64,000 nucleotides of DNA from Lachnospiraceae bacterium (GCA_017623675.1 JAGAOO010000006.1:16355-80354), one strand, 5' to 3'; shown: positions 3,436-62,998, counted from the first letter of the stretch. The notes: generated by a model not told the origin, from the sequence alone. Made by a program: numbers and translations.

Positions 3436-4674
3436 TTATGAACGGTAATCTGCATTAATTTTTACATAATCATAGGTTAAATCGCAGCCCCATGCTGTAG
3501 CTGTTGCCTCGCCACCATTCACGTCCGCTGTAACAATAACTTTTTGGGGCGACAAAATCTTGGTTGCAAGTTCTTCATCATAATCGGTTGCCATTCCACC
3601 TTCCACAAGAGTTAAGGTTCCTACCTCACTGGAAATTTGAATTTTCACCTGATTAGGGTCAAATTCCGCTCCGGAATATCCCATTGCACACAGGATTCTG
3701 CCCCAGTTAGCATCTGTTCCAAATACTGCTGCTTTCGTCAAATTAGAAGTAATAATAGACTTTGCCAGTATCTTTGCCTGCTTTTTGTCGGACGCATGAA
3801 TTACCGTTGCCTCCAGTAAACGAGTGGCTCCTTCTCCATCTGCCGCTATATTTTGTGCCAAAAATGTCATAACCTGCTTCAATGCAGTTCGGAATACTTC
3901 AAAATCTCCATCCTCTGTTGTTAAAATATCATTTTCTGCTAATCCATTTGCCATCAGAATCACAGTATCATTCGTAGACGTATCTCCATCTACCGATACC
4001 ATATTAAAGGTATCTTCTACGAATTCCTTTAAGCTGGCTTTTAAAAGCTCCTTTGAAATCATAACATCTGTTGTAATTACGGAAAGCATGGTTCCCATAT
4101 TGGGATGAATCATACCAGAGCCCTTACAAATACCTGCAATTCTTGCTGTCTTACCCTTGATTTGGAATTCTAAAGCAATTTCCTTCGGATGGGTATCTGT
4201 TGTCATAATCGCTTCTGCAGCGTCATGAGCAGCCTGTTCTTCGGAGCTTAAGGCTCCCCGTAACGCTTTGACACCTTTTAACAATACCTCCATTGGCAAT
4301 GGCTGTCCGATGACACCTGTTGACATTACCATGACCTGCTCTGGTTGAATTGCTAACTCTGCTGCAACTGCTTCTGCTGTCTTTTTCACATTTTCATATC
4401 CGTCGGAACCGGTACACGCATTTGCAATACCACTGTTCACTACCACTGCCTGTGCAACGCCATACTCCTCTAACATCTTAGCATCCCACTGTACCGGAGC
4501 CGCTTTTACCAGATTCCGCGTAAATACCCCTGCTGCTGCACAAGGTACTTCACTGACAATCATTGCCATATCTTTATTGGTTTTCCCCGGCTTAATACCA
4601 GCCCGTAAGCCGGCCGCCTGAAACCCCTTCGGTGCGGTAATACCACCGTTGATTATTGTAATTGATTCACTCAT
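3436..4674 (-). CDS. argJ: Bifunctional ornithine acetyltransferase / N-acetylglutamate synthase
   Basis: 412 aa with ArgJ-type N-terminus ...GGITAPKGFQAAG... and the autoprocessing region HPNMGTMLSVITTD. Confidence 0.9.
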   Translation of the reverse strand: MSESITIINGGITAPKGFQAAGLRAGIKPGKTNKDMAMIVSEVPCAAAGVFTRNLVKAAPVQWDAKMLEEYGVAQAVVVNSGIANACTGSDGYENVKKTAEAVAAELAIQPEQVMVMSTGVIGQPLPMEVLLKGVKALRGALSSEEQAAHDAAEAIMTTDTHPKEIALEFQIKGKTARIAGICKGSGMIHPNMGTMLSVITTDVMISKELLKASLKEFVEDTFNMVSVDGDTSTNDTVILMANGLAENDILTTEDGDFEVFRTALKQVMTFLAQNIAADGEGATRLLEATVIHASDKKQAKILAKSIITSNLTKAAVFGTDANWGRILCAMGYSGAEFDPNQVKIQISSEVGTLTLVEGGMATDYDEELATKILSPQKVIVTADVNGGEATATAWGCDLTYDYVKINADYRS

Positions 4675-4703
4675 ATGTATTCCTCCTACGAAGTTAATAT
4701 TTT

Positions 4704-5284
4704 ATTAAATTAAGGTTTAGCGCAATACCTGCGACCGCGGTTTTGTGGATATATATTCCCGCACGACACGCTTGCGCTCCAGCCAGCACGTAACGGTACG
4801 TAAGGCTGTGCATCACAATTATTATGTTCTCTCCTCACAAAGCACAGCCTAAGTACCGACGTGCTTCTAAGGTCGTTGCGGAAACATATACCCTCAAAAC
4901 CGCTGCTGTAGGAATGGACAAACCTATAATTTATATTGGGGAAAGTAGTATGGCTCCGCGAGGATTAAACGTTACCACAAACGTTATTGTTTACGTAATT
5001 ATACGCATTGTCAACATTATGGTATCATTGTTTTCGTATGCATTGATACCTTACGCGGAGCAGTACTTTGCTTCCTATATAAATTATGGGTCATTTCGTA
5101 CAGTTGGCTACCGGTTTCTGGTGATAGATAGTTGCAAGCAGACCTTAAAAGCACGTTGGTGCTTAGGTGCGGTGTTGTCGCACCTTATGCACCATTACGT
5201 GCTGACCGGAGCGCAAGCGTGTCTGCGGTAACTATCTGTCATCAGAAACCGATAAAGCGACTAAACCAACAAACCATAATTTAT
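4704..5284 (+). ncRNA. Large structured non-coding element, copy 1 (unclassified; candidate ornate ncRNA or structured MITE)
   Basis: Second copy at 38439-38991 (reverse-complemented). Nested long helices: 4923-4941/5072-5090, 5113-5133/5230-5250, 4765-4780/5208-5223. G-T wobble positions occur only on the + strand. Compensatory substitutions separate the two copies. The overlapping ORF is not conserved in copy 2. Confidence 0.65.
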
Positions 5285-5365
5285 TGCATTCTCCTCTCAA
5301 TAGCGATACAATAGAGCCAGTGTGACAGTCTATGACTGCAAGTATTAAAAATAAGGAGATTACAT

Positions 5366-6553
5366 ATGTTATCACAACACTATATTGATATGACTTCTCA
5401 AAAGTCAGCGATTCGTGAACTTTTTGATTATGGCTCCAAGCGGGCACAGGAAATCGGTTATGAAAATGTATTTGATTACAGCTTAGGTAATCCAAGTGTA
5501 CCGACTCCACAGGCATTTACCGATGCTTTGTTAGATTTAATTCAGAACACAGACCCGGTAAAGCTTCATGGCTACAGCCCAAGCCTTGGTATTCCTTCCG
5601 TTCGTCAGGCAGTTGCAGATTCCCTGAACCAACGGTTCGATATGAATTTTAAAATGGAAGATATCTTCATGGCAGTGGGTGCCGCCGGTGCCATTGCACA
5701 TGCGGTTCGTGCAGTGACTGTACCGGGGGACGAGGTCATTACCTTCGCTCCATTTTTCCCGGAATATTATCACTATGTTAATCAGACCGGTGCTGTTCTA
5801 AAGGTGGTTCCTGCTGACATTACCAGCTTCCAGATTAACTTCGAGGCCTTTGAAGAAATGATTACACCAAAGACCATGGCAGTCTTAATCAACACACCGA
5901 ATAACCCGTCCGGCATTGTGTATTCCACCGCCACCATTGATAAGCTGGCAGCTATTTTAACCGCAAAATCAAAAGAATACGGTCATGAGATTTACATTAT
6001 TTCCGATGAACCTTATCGTGAAATTGTTTTTGCCGGTGTAGATGCACCATTTGTTGCCAAGCACTATGACAACACGATTATCTGCTATTCCTTCAGCAAG
6101 TCCATCTCCCTCCCCGGAGAACGTATTGGCTATGTTGCCGTTAATCCAGCCTGCAAGGATGCTGCATTAATAGTAGACATGTGCGGACAGATTTCCAGAG
6201 GAATCGGGCACAATTGTCCACCTTCTCTGATTCAGCTTGCCGTAGCAAGAGTATTGGATATGACCTCTGATATTTCTGTATATGAGACAAATAAGAACAT
6301 TCTTTATCGGGAATTAACCCGAATTGGTTTCGAGATTGTAGAACCGGGCGGAACCTTCTATATGTTCCCGAAGGCATTGGAAAAAAATGCGGCTGCCTTC
6401 TGTGAACGGGCAAAGCAGCATGATTTGTTACTGGTTCCGAGTGACTCTTTCGGATGTCCGGGACATTTCCGCATCTGCTATTGTATTCCTACAGAAAAGG
6501 TAGAGCGTTCCATTCCGGTATTCGAAGCATTGGCAAAGGAATATTTGGGATAA
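5366..6553 (+). CDS. Class I/II pyridoxal-phosphate-dependent aminotransferase (aspartate/aromatic type)
   Basis: 395 aa with NTPNNPSG and the PLP-lysine motif SFSKSISLPGERIGY. SD AAGGAGA upstream. Confidence 0.8.
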   Translation: MLSQHYIDMTSQKSAIRELFDYGSKRAQEIGYENVFDYSLGNPSVPTPQAFTDALLDLIQNTDPVKLHGYSPSLGIPSVRQAVADSLNQRFDMNFKMEDIFMAVGAAGAIAHAVRAVTVPGDEVITFAPFFPEYYHYVNQTGAVLKVVPADITSFQINFEAFEEMITPKTMAVLINTPNNPSGIVYSTATIDKLAAILTAKSKEYGHEIYIISDEPYREIVFAGVDAPFVAKHYDNTIICYSFSKSISLPGERIGYVAVNPACKDAALIVDMCGQISRGIGHNCPPSLIQLAVARVLDMTSDISVYETNKNILYRELTRIGFEIVEPGGTFYMFPKALEKNAAAFCERAKQHDLLLVPSDSFGCPGHFRICYCIPTEKVERSIPVFEALAKEYLG

Positions 6554-6560
6554 ATGCACT

Positions 6561-6771
6561 CCTTTGTGGCTCCTCGAGCCATGCCATCTCGTCTCGGCTC
6601 TGCCTCGACTCGATGTAGGGCTGTCGCCCTATAAGTAGATACGAGCCATGCTTCAGCTCGATTCCGCTTCGCTCCATCTCGCTGACGGGCTGTCGCCCCT
6701 TTGTGGCTCCTCGAGCCATGCCATCTCGTCTCGGCTCTGCCTCGACTCGATGTAGGGCTGTCGCCCTATAA
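6561..6771 (-). repeat. Tandem intergenic repeat array (3 units of about 65-74 nt; same family as 28050-28239, opposite orientation)
   Basis: 6561-6634 and 6698-6771 are identical (74 nt). The 63 nt between them is a diverged copy sharing GAGCCATGC...GGGCTGTCGCCC. The reverse complement matches the GGGCGACAGCC...GCATGGCT unit of the PFL-locus array. Confidence 0.85.
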
Positions 6772-7647: not shown

Positions 7648-9768
7648 ATGGAACAAACACAGGACAATACAATTACAACAACAGGGCATTTACACAGCAC
7701 CGTTTTTTTTATTTTAGTAGTTCTATACTACGAGTTATTATTTCACGGATACCATTTCGGTTTATTCAATATGAATACCATTAATATCATTCTGTTTTCC
7801 ATTGCTTTTGGTGGTGGATTGAGTATTCTGACCAATTTATTGCCGAAACGGGTAAATCAGATTTTAGCCATTGTTATTACCTTTCTTTTGGGCATTATTT
7901 TTATTATTCAATTTTTATATTATGCAGTTTTCGGCAACTACATGTCCTTTGTGGGAACCCTGCAATACACCAATCAGGCGGCAGATAACTTTGACACCGT
8001 TCTATTGAACATGCAGCAGAATATCCCTATGATGTTCCTGCTTTTATTGCCAATTATCCTTACTTCCGTACTGGTCTGGAGAATCGTTGACTTTGAACCA
8101 CGGAAATGGAACATAAGTCTGGCACTTCTTGGTGGCTGCCTTGCCGTATACGGAATCAGCATCCTCGTTTTAAAAATACAGGATAACGATACTTACAGTG
8201 CTTTTCAAATGTACAGCAGATATATTTCCGTTGATATGACCGTAGAAAAACTGGGCGTATGTGAAACGTTGGAAGTCGATATTCGAAAAGGAATTGCCGG
8301 CAAACTTGGCAAAGAAGATTCCTTACAATTCCAGCAGGCTTCCAATAATGCTGCCACAAATGAGAATCCGAGTGACTTAGAGGGTGGCACCAAAACAACA
8401 AGTACCAATACCACACAGTCCACAACAGAAGAAGCAACAACCGAGGCTCCAATTGATACCTCTCCAAATGTAATGGACATTGATTTTGAACAAATTGCAG
8501 AAGAATCCGGCAATGCAAATGTGGCTTCATTATGTGAGTATTTTTCTTCTTTAGAGCCAACTAATAAAAATGAATACACCGGGATGTTTGAAGGCTATAA
8601 TGTAATCTGGATTACCGCAGAGGGCTTTTCCGGTTACGCATTGGAATCGGATTTGTATCCAACCTTATCCATGATGGCTGAGGAAGGTTTTGTCTTTGAA
8701 AACTATTATTCTCCTCTCTGGTATGGTTCCACTTTAGGCGGCGAATATGCGAATTTAATGGGAAGCATGCCGAAAAATGGTGGCTATCTAAGCATGAGCC
8801 ATGCGGCACACAACGGCAATGCATTTCCATTTACGCTAGGGAATCAGTTACAGGATTTAGGCTATCACACTTATGCGTTCCATAACAATTCCTATACCTA
8901 CTATGACCGAAACATTTCTCATCCGGCGTTGGGATATACCTGGATTGCCAACGGTTCCGGTCTGGAGGAACAATGTAATGAATATGGCAGTGTCCTCTGG
9001 CCACAGTCCGATTTGGTTATGGTGCAGGATACCTTTGATACCTACACGGCAGAGGAACCATTCCATCTATATTATCTTACTGTAAGCGGGCATGTTATGT
9101 ACAATTTTGGTGGCAATGCCATGGCAAAAAAGCATCAAGACCTTGTAGCAGACCTTCCATACAGCGAAACTACAAAAGCTTACCTCGCTTGCCAATATGA
9201 GTTGGAATTGGCAGTTTCCGAATTGATAAAGGACTTAAAAGCCAATGATATGTACGACAACACAGTCATCATTCTAGCCGGTGACCATGTTCCATATGAT
9301 AGTATGGAAGTGTTAGATGAGTTGGCCGGCTATGAACTGGAGGATAATTTTGAGGCGTACAAAAGCAACTTAATTATCTGGTCCGGCTCCATGGAAGAAC
9401 CGGTAAAAGTAGATAAGGTATGCAGCAGCATTGACATTCTTCCAACAGTATCGAATCTTCTCGGACTGGAATACGATTCCCGGTTAATCATAGGCCAGGA
9501 TATCTTATCGGATAGCGACGGCTTAGTCATGTTTGCAAACCGCAGCTTTATTACAGATGATTTTTCCTATAATGCATATACCGGAGAAGCGATCAGCAGC
9601 AATGGAAAAACCATTTCGGATGAGACCATAAGCGATTGGAAATCTTATGTAGCAAATAAATTCATTGCCGCCGATGGCATAACGGAATATAATTATTATC
9701 AATACATAGAACGGGATTCGGAGAATCACTCTAACAATCATTCAAACACCAACTCCGAATCCGATTAA
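7648..9768 (+). CDS. LTA synthase family protein (membrane-anchored sulfatase/phosphoglycerol transferase)
   Basis: 706 aa. N-terminal multi-TM segment, a Thr/Ser-rich linker, then a sulfatase-type domain (VIWITAEGF..., GDHVPY). Confidence 0.75.
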   Translation: MEQTQDNTITTTGHLHSTVFFILVVLYYELLFHGYHFGLFNMNTINIILFSIAFGGGLSILTNLLPKRVNQILAIVITFLLGIIFIIQFLYYAVFGNYMSFVGTLQYTNQAADNFDTVLLNMQQNIPMMFLLLLPIILTSVLVWRIVDFEPRKWNISLALLGGCLAVYGISILVLKIQDNDTYSAFQMYSRYISVDMTVEKLGVCETLEVDIRKGIAGKLGKEDSLQFQQASNNAATNENPSDLEGGTKTTSTNTTQSTTEEATTEAPIDTSPNVMDIDFEQIAEESGNANVASLCEYFSSLEPTNKNEYTGMFEGYNVIWITAEGFSGYALESDLYPTLSMMAEEGFVFENYYSPLWYGSTLGGEYANLMGSMPKNGGYLSMSHAAHNGNAFPFTLGNQLQDLGYHTYAFHNNSYTYYDRNISHPALGYTWIANGSGLEEQCNEYGSVLWPQSDLVMVQDTFDTYTAEEPFHLYYLTVSGHVMYNFGGNAMAKKHQDLVADLPYSETTKAYLACQYELELAVSELIKDLKANDMYDNTVIILAGDHVPYDSMEVLDELAGYELEDNFEAYKSNLIIWSGSMEEPVKVDKVCSSIDILPTVSNLLGLEYDSRLIIGQDILSDSDGLVMFANRSFITDDFSYNAYTGEAISSNGKTISDETISDWKSYVANKFIAADGITEYNYYQYIERDSENHSNNHSNTNSESD

Positions 9769-11556: not shown

Positions 11557-12375
11557 ATGAAGAAACCGATTTATGTTAAGACACAGTACAAAGATACCCT
11601 GTTTCGCATGCTTTTTAGGGAGAAACAGAAGTTATTAGAGCTTTACAATGCCATTAACGGCACGGATTATAAGAATCCAAACGAGCTTGAAGTTGTCACA
11701 TTAGAAAATGCAGTTTACATGAGCATCAAGAATGACGTTTCGTGTCGGTTAATTAAACTTCCAACGCCCAAATTTGTGGTCTTTTATAATGGTGCGGAAA
11801 AGCAACCGGAACGCAAAGAATTACATCTTTCCGATGCCTTTGAGGTACAGGAAGACTATCCGGCTCTTGACCTTCATGTGACACAGTTGAATATTAACCA
11901 AGGTTACAATGTAGCATTATTAGAAAAATGTCCAACACTATTCCAATATATGCAGTACGTTGAGCAGGTAAGAAAATACCGCCAGCAATTTTCCCTTGAG
12001 AAAGCGGTACAGTTCGCTGTTGACTATTGTATCAAAAATGGAATACTGAAAGACTTCTTATTAGAGAATAAAGCGGAGGTAATTAAAATGAGTATCTATG
12101 AGTATGATGAAGAATTACATAAGAAAACTCTGCATGACGAGGGCTATGAAGATGGGTTTAATGATGGATTCAATGATGGAGAATCAGCAAATCTAATTAA
12201 GCTAATCTGTCGTAAGCTCCAGAAGAATAAGACTCCTGATACAATTGCCGAAGAATTAGAGGAAGACTTGGATACAATCAGACATATCTGTGATGTTGCC
12301 AAGTCCTTTGCACCGGAATATGATGTGAATGAAATCATGAAGGAACTAAACAGCAGTTCCCATGCTCTCACATGA
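11557..12375 (+). CDS. Rpn/YhgA-like putative recombination-promoting nuclease family protein, apparently lacking the nuclease core
   Basis: N-terminus KDTLFRMLF...LLELYNAINGT and the later IKLPTPKFVVFYNG are typical of this clostridial family. The segment that normally lies between them seems to be missing. Confidence 0.45.
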   Translation: MKKPIYVKTQYKDTLFRMLFREKQKLLELYNAINGTDYKNPNELEVVTLENAVYMSIKNDVSCRLIKLPTPKFVVFYNGAEKQPERKELHLSDAFEVQEDYPALDLHVTQLNINQGYNVALLEKCPTLFQYMQYVEQVRKYRQQFSLEKAVQFAVDYCIKNGILKDFLLENKAEVIKMSIYEYDEELHKKTLHDEGYEDGFNDGFNDGESANLIKLICRKLQKNKTPDTIAEELEEDLDTIRHICDVAKSFAPEYDVNEIMKELNSSSHALT

Positions 12376-12427
12376 AAACTGCTGTTTTGTTCCACATTGT
12401 ATTATTTCAATATGTTATATTCTTACA

Positions 12428-38438: not shown

Positions 38439-38991
38439 ATAAATTATGGTTTAACGTACCAAGTCGCCTTATCGGTTTCTGATGACAGATAGTTACCGCA
38501 GACACGCTTGCGCTCCGATCAGCACGTAATGGTACATAAGGCTGTAAAATACACAGCCTAAGTACCAACGTGCTTTTAAGGTCTGCTTGCAACTATCTAT
38601 CACCAGAAACCGGTAGCCAACTGTACGAAATAACCCATAATTTATATGGGGAGCAAAGTACCGCTCCGCGCAAGGTATCAATGCCTACGAAAGCAATGAT
38701 ACCTTAATACTGACAATGCGTATAATTACGTAAACAATAACGTTTGTGGTAACGTTTAATCCTCGCGGAGCCATACTACTCTCTCCAATATAAATTATGG
38801 GTTTTACCAGAGTAGATGTTCGGCGGATGAATATATATGCTTGAATGCAGACTCTAAAAGTACGTCGGTACTTGGATTGCATCTTTTGCAATCCTATGTA
38901 CCGTTACGTACTGACCGAAGTGCAAACGTGTCTGCATCAAGTATATATATTCGAAGCCGAACGCTAGTCAGTACGATAAACCATAATTTAT
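38439..38991 (-). ncRNA. Large structured non-coding element, copy 2 (reverse orientation)
   Basis: Collinear with the reverse complement of 4704-5284. Core is near-identical. Arm hairpins carry compensating changes. Wobble positions are G-U only on the minus strand. The track ORFs here are interrupted relative to copy 1. Confidence 0.65.
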
Positions 38992-38992
38992 C

Positions 38993-40342
38993 TCACGACC
39001 TTCTACTCTTCTCCAAATTCACGAACTTTGTATACTCTCCCTGCCAACCCAGCATCACAGTGCCGGTAGCACCATTTCTCTGCTTGGCAATGATGATTTC
39101 CGCCTTATTCTTATCCTCTTCCGGCAAATCATCCCGATATTTATCTTCTCTGTAAATGAACATAACAACGTCTGCATCCTGCTCGATAGAACCGGATTCA
39201 CGCAGGTCCGAAAGCATTGGTCGGTGATCGGTTCTGGCTTCTACTGCACGGCTTAACTGAGAAAGTGCAATAATCGGCACATCTAATTCCTTTGCCAGCA
39301 CTTTAAGCCCTCTGGAGATTTCCGAAACCTCCTGCTGACGGGAATCACTTCTTCCACTTCCACTCATCAACTGTAAGTAGTCAATGATGATTAAGCCTAC
39401 ATTATGACGTTGCTTTAATTTTCTACATTTATTCCGAATATCTCCAATGGTTACATTGGACTGGTCTTCAATAAATAATTTCGTTCCACCGATGATATTG
39501 GAGCTCTCATACAGCTTCATCCACTGGTCATCCTGTAAATTACCGGTACGAATATTCTGGGAATTTACCTGTGACTCCATGGCAATCATACGCTGTACTA
39601 ACTGCTCCTTATTCATTTCGAAATTGAAAATAGCAACAGGGACATCCGTTTTCAGAATAACATATTCTGCAATATTCAATACAAATGCAGTTTTACCCAT
39701 TGCCGGTCTGGCTGCCACCAGAATCAATTCGGAACCATGCAGTCCGGTCAGCATATCATCTAAGTCCATGAAACCTGTTGGAACACCGGTAATATTTCCC
39801 TGCTGTTTGGATGCCTCTCGAATGTTACGAAGAACATTGTCTACCACTTCCCGAATAGGAACAATATCATCGCCGGCATTTCCCTGCTGGGTCAGTTCTA
39901 ATACTTCATTTTCAATGTTACTGAGTATGTTGGTGGATGTATCTTTCAGAGAATAACAATCATTGGCAGCGGTTTCCGCCAACTTAATCACCCGCCGCAT
40001 ATTGGCACGGTCTTTTACGATACCGGCATATTTTTTGGCATTTGCCGAAGTGGGCACCACGCTCATTAATTCCTGCATGGTTTCAATGCCATAGACATTT
40101 TCCGGCACACCTTTTTCCTTTAACCGTTCCATTAAGGTAATCAAATCAATGGCAGTTCCTTCATGATACAACTCTACCATTGCTTCAAATATCGCACCAT
40201 ACTGAGGCTGATAGAAATCCTCTTTTGTCAACATATCTGCTACATTGACAACTGCTTCCCGGCTCATCAGCATAGATGCAAGCACTGCCTGCTCTGATTC
40301 CACACTATTCGGTTGTGTCTTACGGATTACTGCTTCTTCCAT
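38993..40342 (-). CDS. dnaB: Replicative DNA helicase
   Basis: 449 aa; Walker A ARPAMGKTAF; conserved rplI-dnaB synteny. Confidence 0.95.
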   Translation of the reverse strand: MEEAVIRKTQPNSVESEQAVLASMLMSREAVVNVADMLTKEDFYQPQYGAIFEAMVELYHEGTAIDLITLMERLKEKGVPENVYGIETMQELMSVVPTSANAKKYAGIVKDRANMRRVIKLAETAANDCYSLKDTSTNILSNIENEVLELTQQGNAGDDIVPIREVVDNVLRNIREASKQQGNITGVPTGFMDLDDMLTGLHGSELILVAARPAMGKTAFVLNIAEYVILKTDVPVAIFNFEMNKEQLVQRMIAMESQVNSQNIRTGNLQDDQWMKLYESSNIIGGTKLFIEDQSNVTIGDIRNKCRKLKQRHNVGLIIIDYLQLMSGSGRSDSRQQEVSEISRGLKVLAKELDVPIIALSQLSRAVEARTDHRPMLSDLRESGSIEQDADVVMFIYREDKYRDDLPEEDKNKAEIIIAKQRNGATGTVMLGWQGEYTKFVNLEKSRRS

Positions 40343-61930: not shown

Positions 61931-62998
61931 ATGAAACGAATTATCCTTACCGGTGGCGGAACTGCCGGACATGTTACTCCGAATATTGCATTAATCCCTT
62001 ATTTACAGGAAGCCGGATATGATATTCACTATATTGGCTCCTATACCGGCATTGAAAAGAAATTAATTGAAGATATGAAGATTCCTTATCATGGAATCTC
62101 CTCCGGTAAACTACGGCGATACTTTGATGTAAAGAATTTTTCCGATCCCTTTCGTGTTATAAAAGGATATGGCGAAGCCTCCCGTCTGATTAAAAGCCTG
62201 AAACCGGATGTGGTATTCAGTAAGGGTGGATTTGTCTCTGTTCCTGTTGTTATGGCAGCAAAGAATCATAAGGTACCTGCTATTATTCACGAATCAGATA
62301 TGACACCGGGACTTGCCAATAAGTTGTGTATACCATGTGCTGCCAAAATATGCTGCAATTTCCCTGAAGCTATGGAGCATTTACCAAAAGACAAGGCGGT
62401 ATTAACCGGCACACCTATCCGACAGGAATTATTCAAAGGCGACCCGGTTGAGGCAGTTCAATTTACCGGACTGGATGCCAATAAACCGACCATACTGGTA
62501 GTTGGCGGCAGTACCGGAAGCGTAAAGGTGAATGAAGCAGTTCGAGGCTGTTTAGACGAGCTGTTACAGACCTATCAGGTTATTCATTTATGTGGAAAAG
62601 ATAAAGTTGATTCTGAATATGAAAATCGTGCCGGATATGTACAGTATGAGTACATTAAAAAGGAACTAAGTTCTTTACTGGCATTTGCAGATATTGTAAT
62701 TTCCAGAGCCGGTGCCAATGCTATCTGTGAACTGCAGGCTTTGGCAAAACCGAATATCCTGATTCCTCTTGGTTCTAATGCCAGCCGGGGCGACCAGATT
62801 CTTAACGCCGAATCCTTTGAAAAACAAGGCTTCAGTTATGTTCTTATGGAGGAAAACCTTTCGAAGGAAGCTTTGTTAGAAGCTGTCAACTATGTGTATG
62901 AGCATCGCAGTGAATATAAAAAGACCATGGAAGCCAGCCAGATGACCAATGCCATTGAAAAAATAATGAAATTGATTAATCGAGCTGCAAATCAATAA
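61931..62998 (+). CDS. murG: Undecaprenyldiphospho-muramoylpentapeptide beta-N-acetylglucosaminyltransferase
   Basis: LTGGGTAGHVTPN, ...ISRAGANAICE...; 355 aa. Confidence 0.92.
   Translation: MKRIILTGGGTAGHVTPNIALIPYLQEAGYDIHYIGSYTGIEKKLIEDMKIPYHGISSGKLRRYFDVKNFSDPFRVIKGYGEASRLIKSLKPDVVFSKGGFVSVPVVMAAKNHKVPAIIHESDMTPGLANKLCIPCAAKICCNFPEAMEHLPKDKAVLTGTPIRQELFKGDPVEAVQFTGLDANKPTILVVGGSTGSVKVNEAVRGCLDELLQTYQVIHLCGKDKVDSEYENRAGYVQYEYIKKELSSLLAFADIVISRAGANAICELQALAKPNILIPLGSNASRGDQILNAESFEKQGFSYVLMEENLSKEALLEAVNYVYEHRSEYKKTMEASQMTNAIEKIMKLINRAANQ

Follow-up and report, generated by a model that had tools for sequence, protein, structure and literature searches.

A composite intergenic element between argJ and an aminotransferase gene is a mosaic of hairpin modules placed on opposite strands

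Described repeats and RNAs, and the layout of the composite

The REP, BIME and REPIN elements, mainly of proteobacteria, are intergenic hairpin repeats, often inside operons, that serve as recombination substrates and form mosaics of alternating units separated by other motifs. Their units are palindromes of 20-40 nt with copy numbers of tens to hundreds per genome, and the inverted doublet is the repeated unit. The ERIC, BOX and Correia/NEMIS repeats are imperfect hairpins of ∼100-200 nt that are co-transcribed with neighbour genes. BOX is modular (A-B-C), insertions at one fixed position inside ERIC give rise to longer variants, and some ERIC, BOX and Correia repeats have known effects on mRNA processing and stability.

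At the RNA level, OLE, ROOL and GOLLD are large ornate, self-assembling bacterial RNAs of several hundred nt (bioRxiv 10.1101/2024.12.08.627333). The GA-cis motif (RF02987) comes from the paper on 224 motifs (Weinberg et al., 2017; PMC5737381). It is an orphan motif, typed as an sRNA gene in Rfam.

Here we analyze a composite at positions 4705-5284 of a 64,000-nt stretch of DNA (the window denotes this whole stretch) from a genome that apparently belongs to the Clostridia. The divergent argJ (3436-4674, minus strand; Pfam ArgJ) and aminotransferase (5366-6553, plus strand) genes flank the 690-nt gap that contains the composite. Each of its two strands folds more stably than shuffles by a wide margin, with z values of -12.7 and -13.6.

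The composite is a mosaic of three hairpin modules rather than one symmetric RNA. Its two arms are copies of a module on opposite strands, facing outward around a third hairpin, the central domain. The left arm (4725-4915, minus strand preferred) consists of a three-way-junction module (core, 4756-4883) and a long closing helix (4725-4763 with 4877-4915; 39 nt, 77% complementary), and faces argJ. Its GNRA loop lies at 4772-4775, where TTGC on the plus strand corresponds to GCAA on the minus strand. The right arm (5109-5254, plus strand) has the same module (core, 5130-5234), is closed by 5109-5133 with 5230-5254 (25 nt, 88% complementary; both closing helices come from an inverted-repeat search) and faces the aminotransferase gene. 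Its P3 mini-hairpin has a stem at 5211-5212/5217-5218 and a GNRA loop, GCAA, at 5213-5216. Inverted repeats connect the arms at 4765-4805 vs. 5183-5223 (41 nt, 88% complementary) and at 4848-4874 vs. 5141-5167 (27 nt, 89%). An earlier sequence-only reading of this DNA had described the arms as reverse-complement homologs that each fold locally into a closing helix and a hairpin, and both descriptions agree with these results.

The central hairpin domain (4935-5078) is more stable on the plus strand and is the best-conserved block between this composite (copy 1) and a second one in the window (copy 2). It is closed by 4922-4939 with 5074-5091 plus 4947-4960 with 5054-5067. The domain is energetically better on the right-arm strand in all variants, most clearly in variant L010 (-46.1 vs. 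-36.1 kcal/mol). A type I toxin-antitoxin or small-protein gene in the centre was rejected, the ORF from 4951 having ∼93 codons in copy 1, 29 in copy 2 and 5 in L010.

A sequence of roughly 11 nt, ATAAATTATGG, is the shared base of every module. The first copy, M1 (4705-4715, plus strand), is a degenerate version that reads TTAAATTAAGG and forms the outermost base of the left-arm hairpin; its equivalent in copy 2 is exact. M2 (4923-4934 on the plus strand, CCTATAATTTAT) is the reverse complement of the motif with one mismatch (matched span 4924-4934, motif on the minus strand) and can partner M1 or M3; the M2:M3 pairing is the outer closure of the centre. M3 (5079-5089, plus strand) is an exact ATAAATTATGG, and homology to variant L009 stops here. 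M4 (5274-5284, motif on the minus strand) reads CCATAATTTAT on the plus strand, the exact reverse complement of ATAAATTATGG. The fourfold, alternating occurrence of the motif that had been noticed earlier was borne out at all four predicted sites, and the orientation alternates because the motif is the shared stem base of modules that themselves alternate. The 11-nt motif is conserved only in the composite of this species.

Copy 2 occupies 38439-38991 (minus strand) and begins 1 nt past the stop codon of dnaB, whose product was identified as DnaB. The two copies are mutually inverted and 33 kb apart, and their identity is 93% in the centre and right arm and about 80% in the left arm. The motif is exact at 4 of 4 sites (38439, 38635, 38790 and 38981), with alternating orientation. 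The copy 2 arm cores at 38490-38594 (minus strand, 109 bits) and 38839-38943 (plus strand, 103.3 bits), scored with the covariance model R1 described below, face outward as in copy 1. What had been said to be retained in copy 2 is indeed present as far as the arms, the local folds and the four motifs are concerned, but the perfect complementarity of the loops is not. At window 38991-38995 the TGA that stops dnaB ends 1 nt ahead of the copy 2 motif. The third ATAAATTATGG of copy 2 (38634-38650, minus strand) folds by itself into a small hairpin (CCCATA-TAAAT-TATGGG), has a T-rich tail behind it and was flagged as weakly terminator-like; it could be the transcript end of the central domain.

Like the REP, BIME and REPIN elements, the composite is a mosaic of alternating intergenic hairpins separated by another motif, and its repeated unit is an inverted doublet. 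In contrast, its units measure 170-240 nt and have a three-way-junction core, only four arms are present in 64 kb, a REP-associated transposase was not found among 10 neighbouring proteins, and the outer helix is locus-specific. With the ERIC, BOX and Correia repeats the composite shares the character of a modular structured intergenic repeat, but it has no sequence similarity to them, no conserved terminal repeats and no target duplications, and its pattern of conservation is characteristic of a folded RNA rather than a transposon end. With OLE, ROOL and GOLLD it shares a length of several hundred nt, a high degree of structure and an origin in Firmicutes, and those RNAs offered a precedent for an earlier idea of homo-oligomers. 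Unlike them, it has arms that are read on opposite strands, so that there is no single-strand unit, and contacts between its arms are unsupported comparatively.

No family of Rfam 15 corresponds to the arms or the centre: the best matches in 4500-5500 at E ≤ 10 were miRNA and snoRNA models (≤19 bits, E > 1), and a scan of a lone arm in contig L016 had the same outcome. The known large non-coding RNAs (OLE, ROOL, GOLLD, raiA, HEARO and others in Rfam 15) gave no covariance-model match. A literature search for a corresponding repeat or RNA family found none. The arm module is apparently uncatalogued, and the mosaic arrangement is apparently new. Integron attC sites, hammerhead and hairpin ribozymes and the classical kink-turn were compared by eye through their consensus sequences, and none fits. 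The sole match in the window at an Rfam gathering threshold is the Staphylococcus sRNA S414 (62453-62627, minus strand), a borderline one with 48.2 bits vs. 45 in what seems to be a Clostridia genome, Spo0A being close by in a sister contig.

Fold, covariation and strand of the arm module

Twenty distinct arms were aligned to build R1, and the window was scanned with filters off. In its core (∼110 nt) the module forms a three-way junction that includes G.A-rich loops and a mini-hairpin capped by GNRA; a long locus-specific helix closes this core. On the preferred strand the 5′ half runs from the outer helix (20-60 bp) through UUCUWAA, GCAGAC-CR, the UUGA side of an internal loop and AGCACGU-Y-GGUAC to a variable hairpin. 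The 3′ half continues with GUACC-R-(YU bulge)-ACGUGCU, the GAAC side of the internal loop, YG, A, GC[GNRA]GC, GY, GUCUGC, GUAGAA and the return strand of the outer helix. The UUGA/GAAC internal loop carries tandem G.A.

When this local fold was imposed on the 20-arm alignment, 98.2% of the cells were paired, with compensatory changes in 13 of 28 pairs. None of 500 column shuffles matched this covariation, and sliding the partner columns left 18-42% paired. RNAalifold independently found double changes in 16 of 33 pairs and a two-pair CR/YG extension with four pair types. The GNRA loop occurs as GCAA, GGAA, GGGA, GAGA and GAAA, its G and A being invariant. The outer helix differs wholly in sequence among loci, also between two species at secA-prfB, and its pairing is always kept. 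The core sequence is very strongly conserved across genera, and the peripheral helices vary. This pattern of invariant junction and loops, free helices and a GNRA loop is that of a folded RNA, and it marks a strongly covarying structured motif, without an Rfam entry, at many housekeeping operons of gut Clostridia.

Scanning of the 64-kb window with R1 revealed exactly four arms, two per element and on opposite strands, with scores of at most 14.7 bits in the reverse orientation. In copy 1 the right core (5130-5234, plus strand) scored 104.8 bits (E = 5e-27) and the left core (4756-4883, minus strand) 71.6 bits (E = 1e-17). We show that the element is modular, that its arms have a three-way-junction fold and that it is multi-copy. 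A weak R1 match at 12322-12417 is merely a terminator-like hairpin and not an arm.

The arms fold better on one strand. Across 46 distinct arm sequences the mean minimum free energy was -97.7 kcal/mol on the preferred strand vs. -85.2 kcal/mol on the complement, and G.U pairs numbered 305 vs. 105; a typical lone arm has 5-9 vs. 0-2. In copy 1 the left arm gave -103.2 kcal/mol on the minus strand vs. -92.6 (nine vs. four G.U pairs), and the right arm -106.7 kcal/mol on the plus strand vs. -96.0. In the left arms of copy 2 and of variant L005 the strands do not differ in this way (-94.4 vs. -93.9 kcal/mol). Only the preferred strand has the GNRA loop and the tandem G.A pairs, and this strand is sense for both neighbour genes in most lone-arm contexts. 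The GA-cis modules of Rfam that are nested in two arms, and whose orientation was curated independently, share the preferred strand of the arm. These data show that (i) the arms are strand-asymmetric; and (ii) in the composite they are arranged facing outward.

G.T pairs and GNRA-like and GNA loops are stable in single-stranded DNA too. The sense strand of the arms is usually the lagging-strand template, with which the strand bias is equally consistent. A role as single-stranded DNA or as a mobile repeat is therefore the main rival of an RNA role, because tolerance of G.T pairs, GNA or GNRA loops and replication-linked orientation could mimic the RNA signals.

GA-cis is the closest catalogued relative of the arms. 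Both are multi-copy and intergenic and share human-gut Clostridia contigs as well as the strand, and the arm P3 (GA-GC-GNRA-GC-G) looks similar to cGAgcGaAagcGAg, the tip of the second GA-cis hairpin. Unlike GA-cis, the arm has no Rfam model; it is larger, a three-way junction that a long helix closes. The window arms are not members of GA-cis: none is at or near its gathering threshold of 34.7 bits, nor is GA-cis among the matches listed for 4500-5500 at E ≤ 10. In the arms of contigs L067 and L115, an insertion of ∼90 nt that replaces the mini-hairpin is GA-cis (73.6 and 77.6 bits), and the two insertions covary with each other. The GA-cis matches, nested in arms or alone, lie at 6651-6736 and 8014-8102 in L067, 4118-4205 in L115 and 10443-10528 in L016. 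This distribution points to GA-cis as either an optional domain of the larger arm fold or a guest that it often hosts, and the arm module gives this orphan motif a structural context. The insertion in the right arm of L005 resembles the 5′ half of GA-cis by eye, and the GA-cis model does not detect it. A TwoAYGGAY RNA (RF01731, 117.8 bits) lies at 7767-7932 (minus strand) of contig L020, which also has two arm modules. These gut Clostridia have several orphan multi-copy RNA motifs.

Complementarity between the arms

The 16-mer GGAGCGCAAGCGTGTC is present at 5208-5223 (plus strand) and, reverse-complemented, at 4765-4780, with a chance expectation of 0.18 matches. The sequence-only reading had proposed a molecule with pseudo-two-fold symmetry, whose arm loops would pair either within it, giving a pseudoknot, or between the members of a homo-oligomer, and whose four copies of ATAAATTATGG could allow a conformational switch; such a molecule would be one transcript of ∼570 nt. 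Such pairing is physically feasible. The loop duplex of copy 1 is complementary at 16 of 16 positions, the plus-strand centroid and the minus-strand minimum-energy structures include long-range pairing from arm to arm with energies near those of the local folds, and the four exact motifs of copy 2 are also in favour of a symmetric molecule.

The perfect complementarity asserted for the arm loops holds in copy 1 but not in copy 2 or the strain variants. The duplex would have 13 Watson-Crick pairs, 2 G.U pairs and 1 mismatch in copy 2, and 13 pairs and 3 mismatches in L009. In the sister strain contig L005 it is interrupted, the right-arm loop being split by a structured 94-nt insertion (2757-2850) inside the GNRA loop, at the equivalent of window 5212-5215, with CGAAG-type hairpins.

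The “complementary loop” is in fact the module's own 2-bp stem with its GNRA tetraloop plus a junction strand, and the changes seen make sense within it. The left and right arms of copy 2 differ at three loop positions, two of which turn a C-G pair of the mini-hairpin stem into U-A and so compensate each other; in the supposed inter-arm duplex the same three changes yield two G.U pairs and one A.C mismatch. In L009 the partner arm has GGAA for GCAA, a change at the free position of the GNRA loop that would place a C.C mismatch in the inter-arm duplex. Among the copies compared, compensatory changes between the arms were not observed; those seen compensate within the local GNRA hairpin. Covariation, which the sequence-only reading had named as the means to decide which helices are under selection, was found on the 20 arms for the local hairpin only, essentially the outcome that this reading had set against itself.

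The loop is also identical in lone arms that lack any partner. Moreover, the left arms fit the model on the opposite strand only, the GNRA and G.A features being lost on the forward strand, and M1 is degenerate in copy 1. The lone arms, the variants that break the duplex and the purely local covariation argue against the proposed pairing between arms, be it a pseudoknot or a dimer, and a symmetric RNA is very improbable. We show that selection on inter-arm pairing is absent. The arm loops are mutually complementary because the arms are inverted copies, and their complementarity is, to judge from the sequence comparisons, probably a by-product of the inverted placement of modules and not a designed contact. 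A seeming signal of long-range kissing or dimerisation can thus come purely from inverted module placement, and single copies elsewhere are the decisive control.

The suggestion of alternative closings survives in part. M1:M2 with M3:M4, or M2:M3 with M1:M4, are both possible in sequence, but selection for a switch was not seen and the M1 of copy 1 is degenerate.

Lone arms, strain variants and candidate roles

The inner helix of the four window arms, used as a search pattern, matched 112 human-gut metagenome contigs, in which DNA similarity to the composite was not found beyond the core. In human-gut Clostridia contigs the module stands alone as one hairpin, without a second arm nearby, at no fewer than nine intergenic sites. 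The pattern search located it at argC-argJ, aspS-gatC and secA-prfB, between a gene for 387 aa and pfkA, and in one gap between convergent genes; R1 added feoA-feoB, pth-mfd and two more. A pattern for the loop, TTGCNCTNCNNNCAGNACGTAANGGT, gave four chance matches only in reference-genome contigs, being too specific to the loop of this species.

The gaps with lone arms are mostly intercistronic and of 100-300 nt. The arms lie 30-120 nt from the neighbouring coding regions and leave the ribosome-binding site free. An arm precedes argJ both in the window organism and in another genus (ArgJ about 65% identical), and the arm position is retained across species or genera at secA-prfB and argJ. In the aspS-gatC gap, contigs L014 and L023 when compared to L016 have a deletion of the 3′ strand of the outer helix and ∼100 nt downstream, between short AATA repeats, and the core is intact.

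The genes downstream of the arms (argJ, gatC, prfB, pfkA, feoB, mfd, the aminotransferase gene and an ORF of 189 aa, itself of unknown product) have no common function, and these mixed functions speak against a riboswitch or cis-regulator of one pathway. The arm hairpins are followed by no U-tract, as an intrinsic terminator would require.

Given a core so highly conserved across genera and peripheral helices so variable, each arm, and possibly the centre, might instead be an independent gene for a trans-acting sRNA that binds a protein via the junction and G.A loops, the neighbours being incidental. The related GA-cis is typed as an sRNA gene, the arm of contig L078 is antisense to its neighbour genes and is followed by a terminator-like hairpin, and the M3 motif forms the weak terminator-like hairpin after the central domain. 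However, most lone arms are sense in their intercistronic gaps, with no recognisable promoter, terminator or U-tract of their own. Promoter scans in the composite gave counts not clearly above those of shuffles, and the best candidate (TTGACA-17-AACAAT, minus strand, in the central domain) is not conserved in the L010 variant. We consider free-standing sRNA genes quite unlikely.

The strain variants bear on the behaviour of the element as DNA. With identical flanking proteins, the partners across the element differ: infB and the aminotransferase gene in L005, asd and argJ in L009, and argJ and the aminotransferase gene in the window. Homology to the window is lost at the two margins of the central block (about 4920 and about 5091). 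Homologous recombination via the conserved centre of a multi-copy element is probably the source of the rearranged flanks, and the simplest reading is that three or more copies per genome recombine through the centre. Since the breakpoints fall on the margins of the best-conserved block, a position that homologous recombination would yield, there was judged to be no need for site-specific recombination at the 11-nt motif. Most contigs with an identical DnaB stop within about 80 nt past dnaB, as expected of a repeat that breaks assemblies; the composite accounts for such assembly breaks and for strain-specific rearrangements in this organism. In L010 (about 150-290, equivalent to window 4960-5050) the interior of the centre is unrelated and its closing helix is kept, so that the centre behaves as the arms do, its base conserved and its tip exchangeable.

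A DNA repeat of REPIN, BIME or MITE type would account for several of these findings. The arms would fold as single-stranded DNA, an enzyme encoded in trans (e.g., an HUH/Y1 transposase or a recombinase) would recognise them, and the inverted doublet with its spacer would be mobilised or recombined. The element is multi-copy and breaks assemblies, has the inverted-doublet architecture of REPINs, and shows strain rearrangement junctions at motif boundaries. It begins 0-14 nt after stop codons and supplies that of infB in L005, where the TAA sits within the first ATAAATT motif (M1; 2276-2290). The insertions carry GCGAAGC-type and CGAAG loops that are similar to mini-hairpins known to be stable in DNA. 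In contrast to terminal repeats recognised by a transposase, the outer helices are unconserved even within one genome (the feo and pfkA arms of L020). These helices, which also differ entirely between species, together with the missing target duplication, led us to reject a MITE in particular. No target-site duplication flanks copy 1, copy 2, L005 or L009, and neither a transposase nor a recombinase was found among the 10 neighbouring proteins scanned. Comparison with phages and plasmids by blastn, and pattern scans of viral contigs, gave no match. The arm positions kept at secA-prfB and argJ across species or genera point to long residence under selection and not to recent mobility. Although it is the main rival, a DNA repeat of this kind appears rather unlikely.

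The explanation that we favour, with slightly better than even confidence, is a mosaic of opposite-strand modules in which each arm acts as an RNA leader or intercistronic element within the transcript of the gene that it faces. The long helix and rigid junction would be a determinant of processing or stability, e.g., an RNase III target or a barrier to exonucleases, the conserved loops a putative protein-binding site, and the conserved centre a substrate for homologous recombination at the DNA level. As far as sequence comparison can tell, an arm is most likely a leader or intercistronic element at the RNA level, a determinant of processing or stability, or a protein-binding element. Where an arm adjoins dnaB, infB or asd, it points to the 3′ end of the gene, and a leader role would be meaningless there.

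Should the module work on mRNA, it would constitute a shared element of post-transcriptional control or processing for argJ, prfB, gatCAB, feoB and mfd in abundant gut bacteria. A broader view, which we offer tentatively, is that the arms may form an undescribed, widespread, multi-copy RNA class of human-gut Clostridia with GA-cis as an optional sub-domain, and that the composite may be a dedicated two-faced version, providing both flanking transcription units with one and the same leader module around the third structured domain, and a hotspot of chromosomal inversion.

Directly downstream of the aminotransferase gene the window has a perfect 74-nt direct repeat (6561-6634 and 6698-6771) with short GC-rich palindromes inside. 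Contig L007 is without the stretch between the two 74-nt units, and the repeat resembles another small intergenic repeat family.
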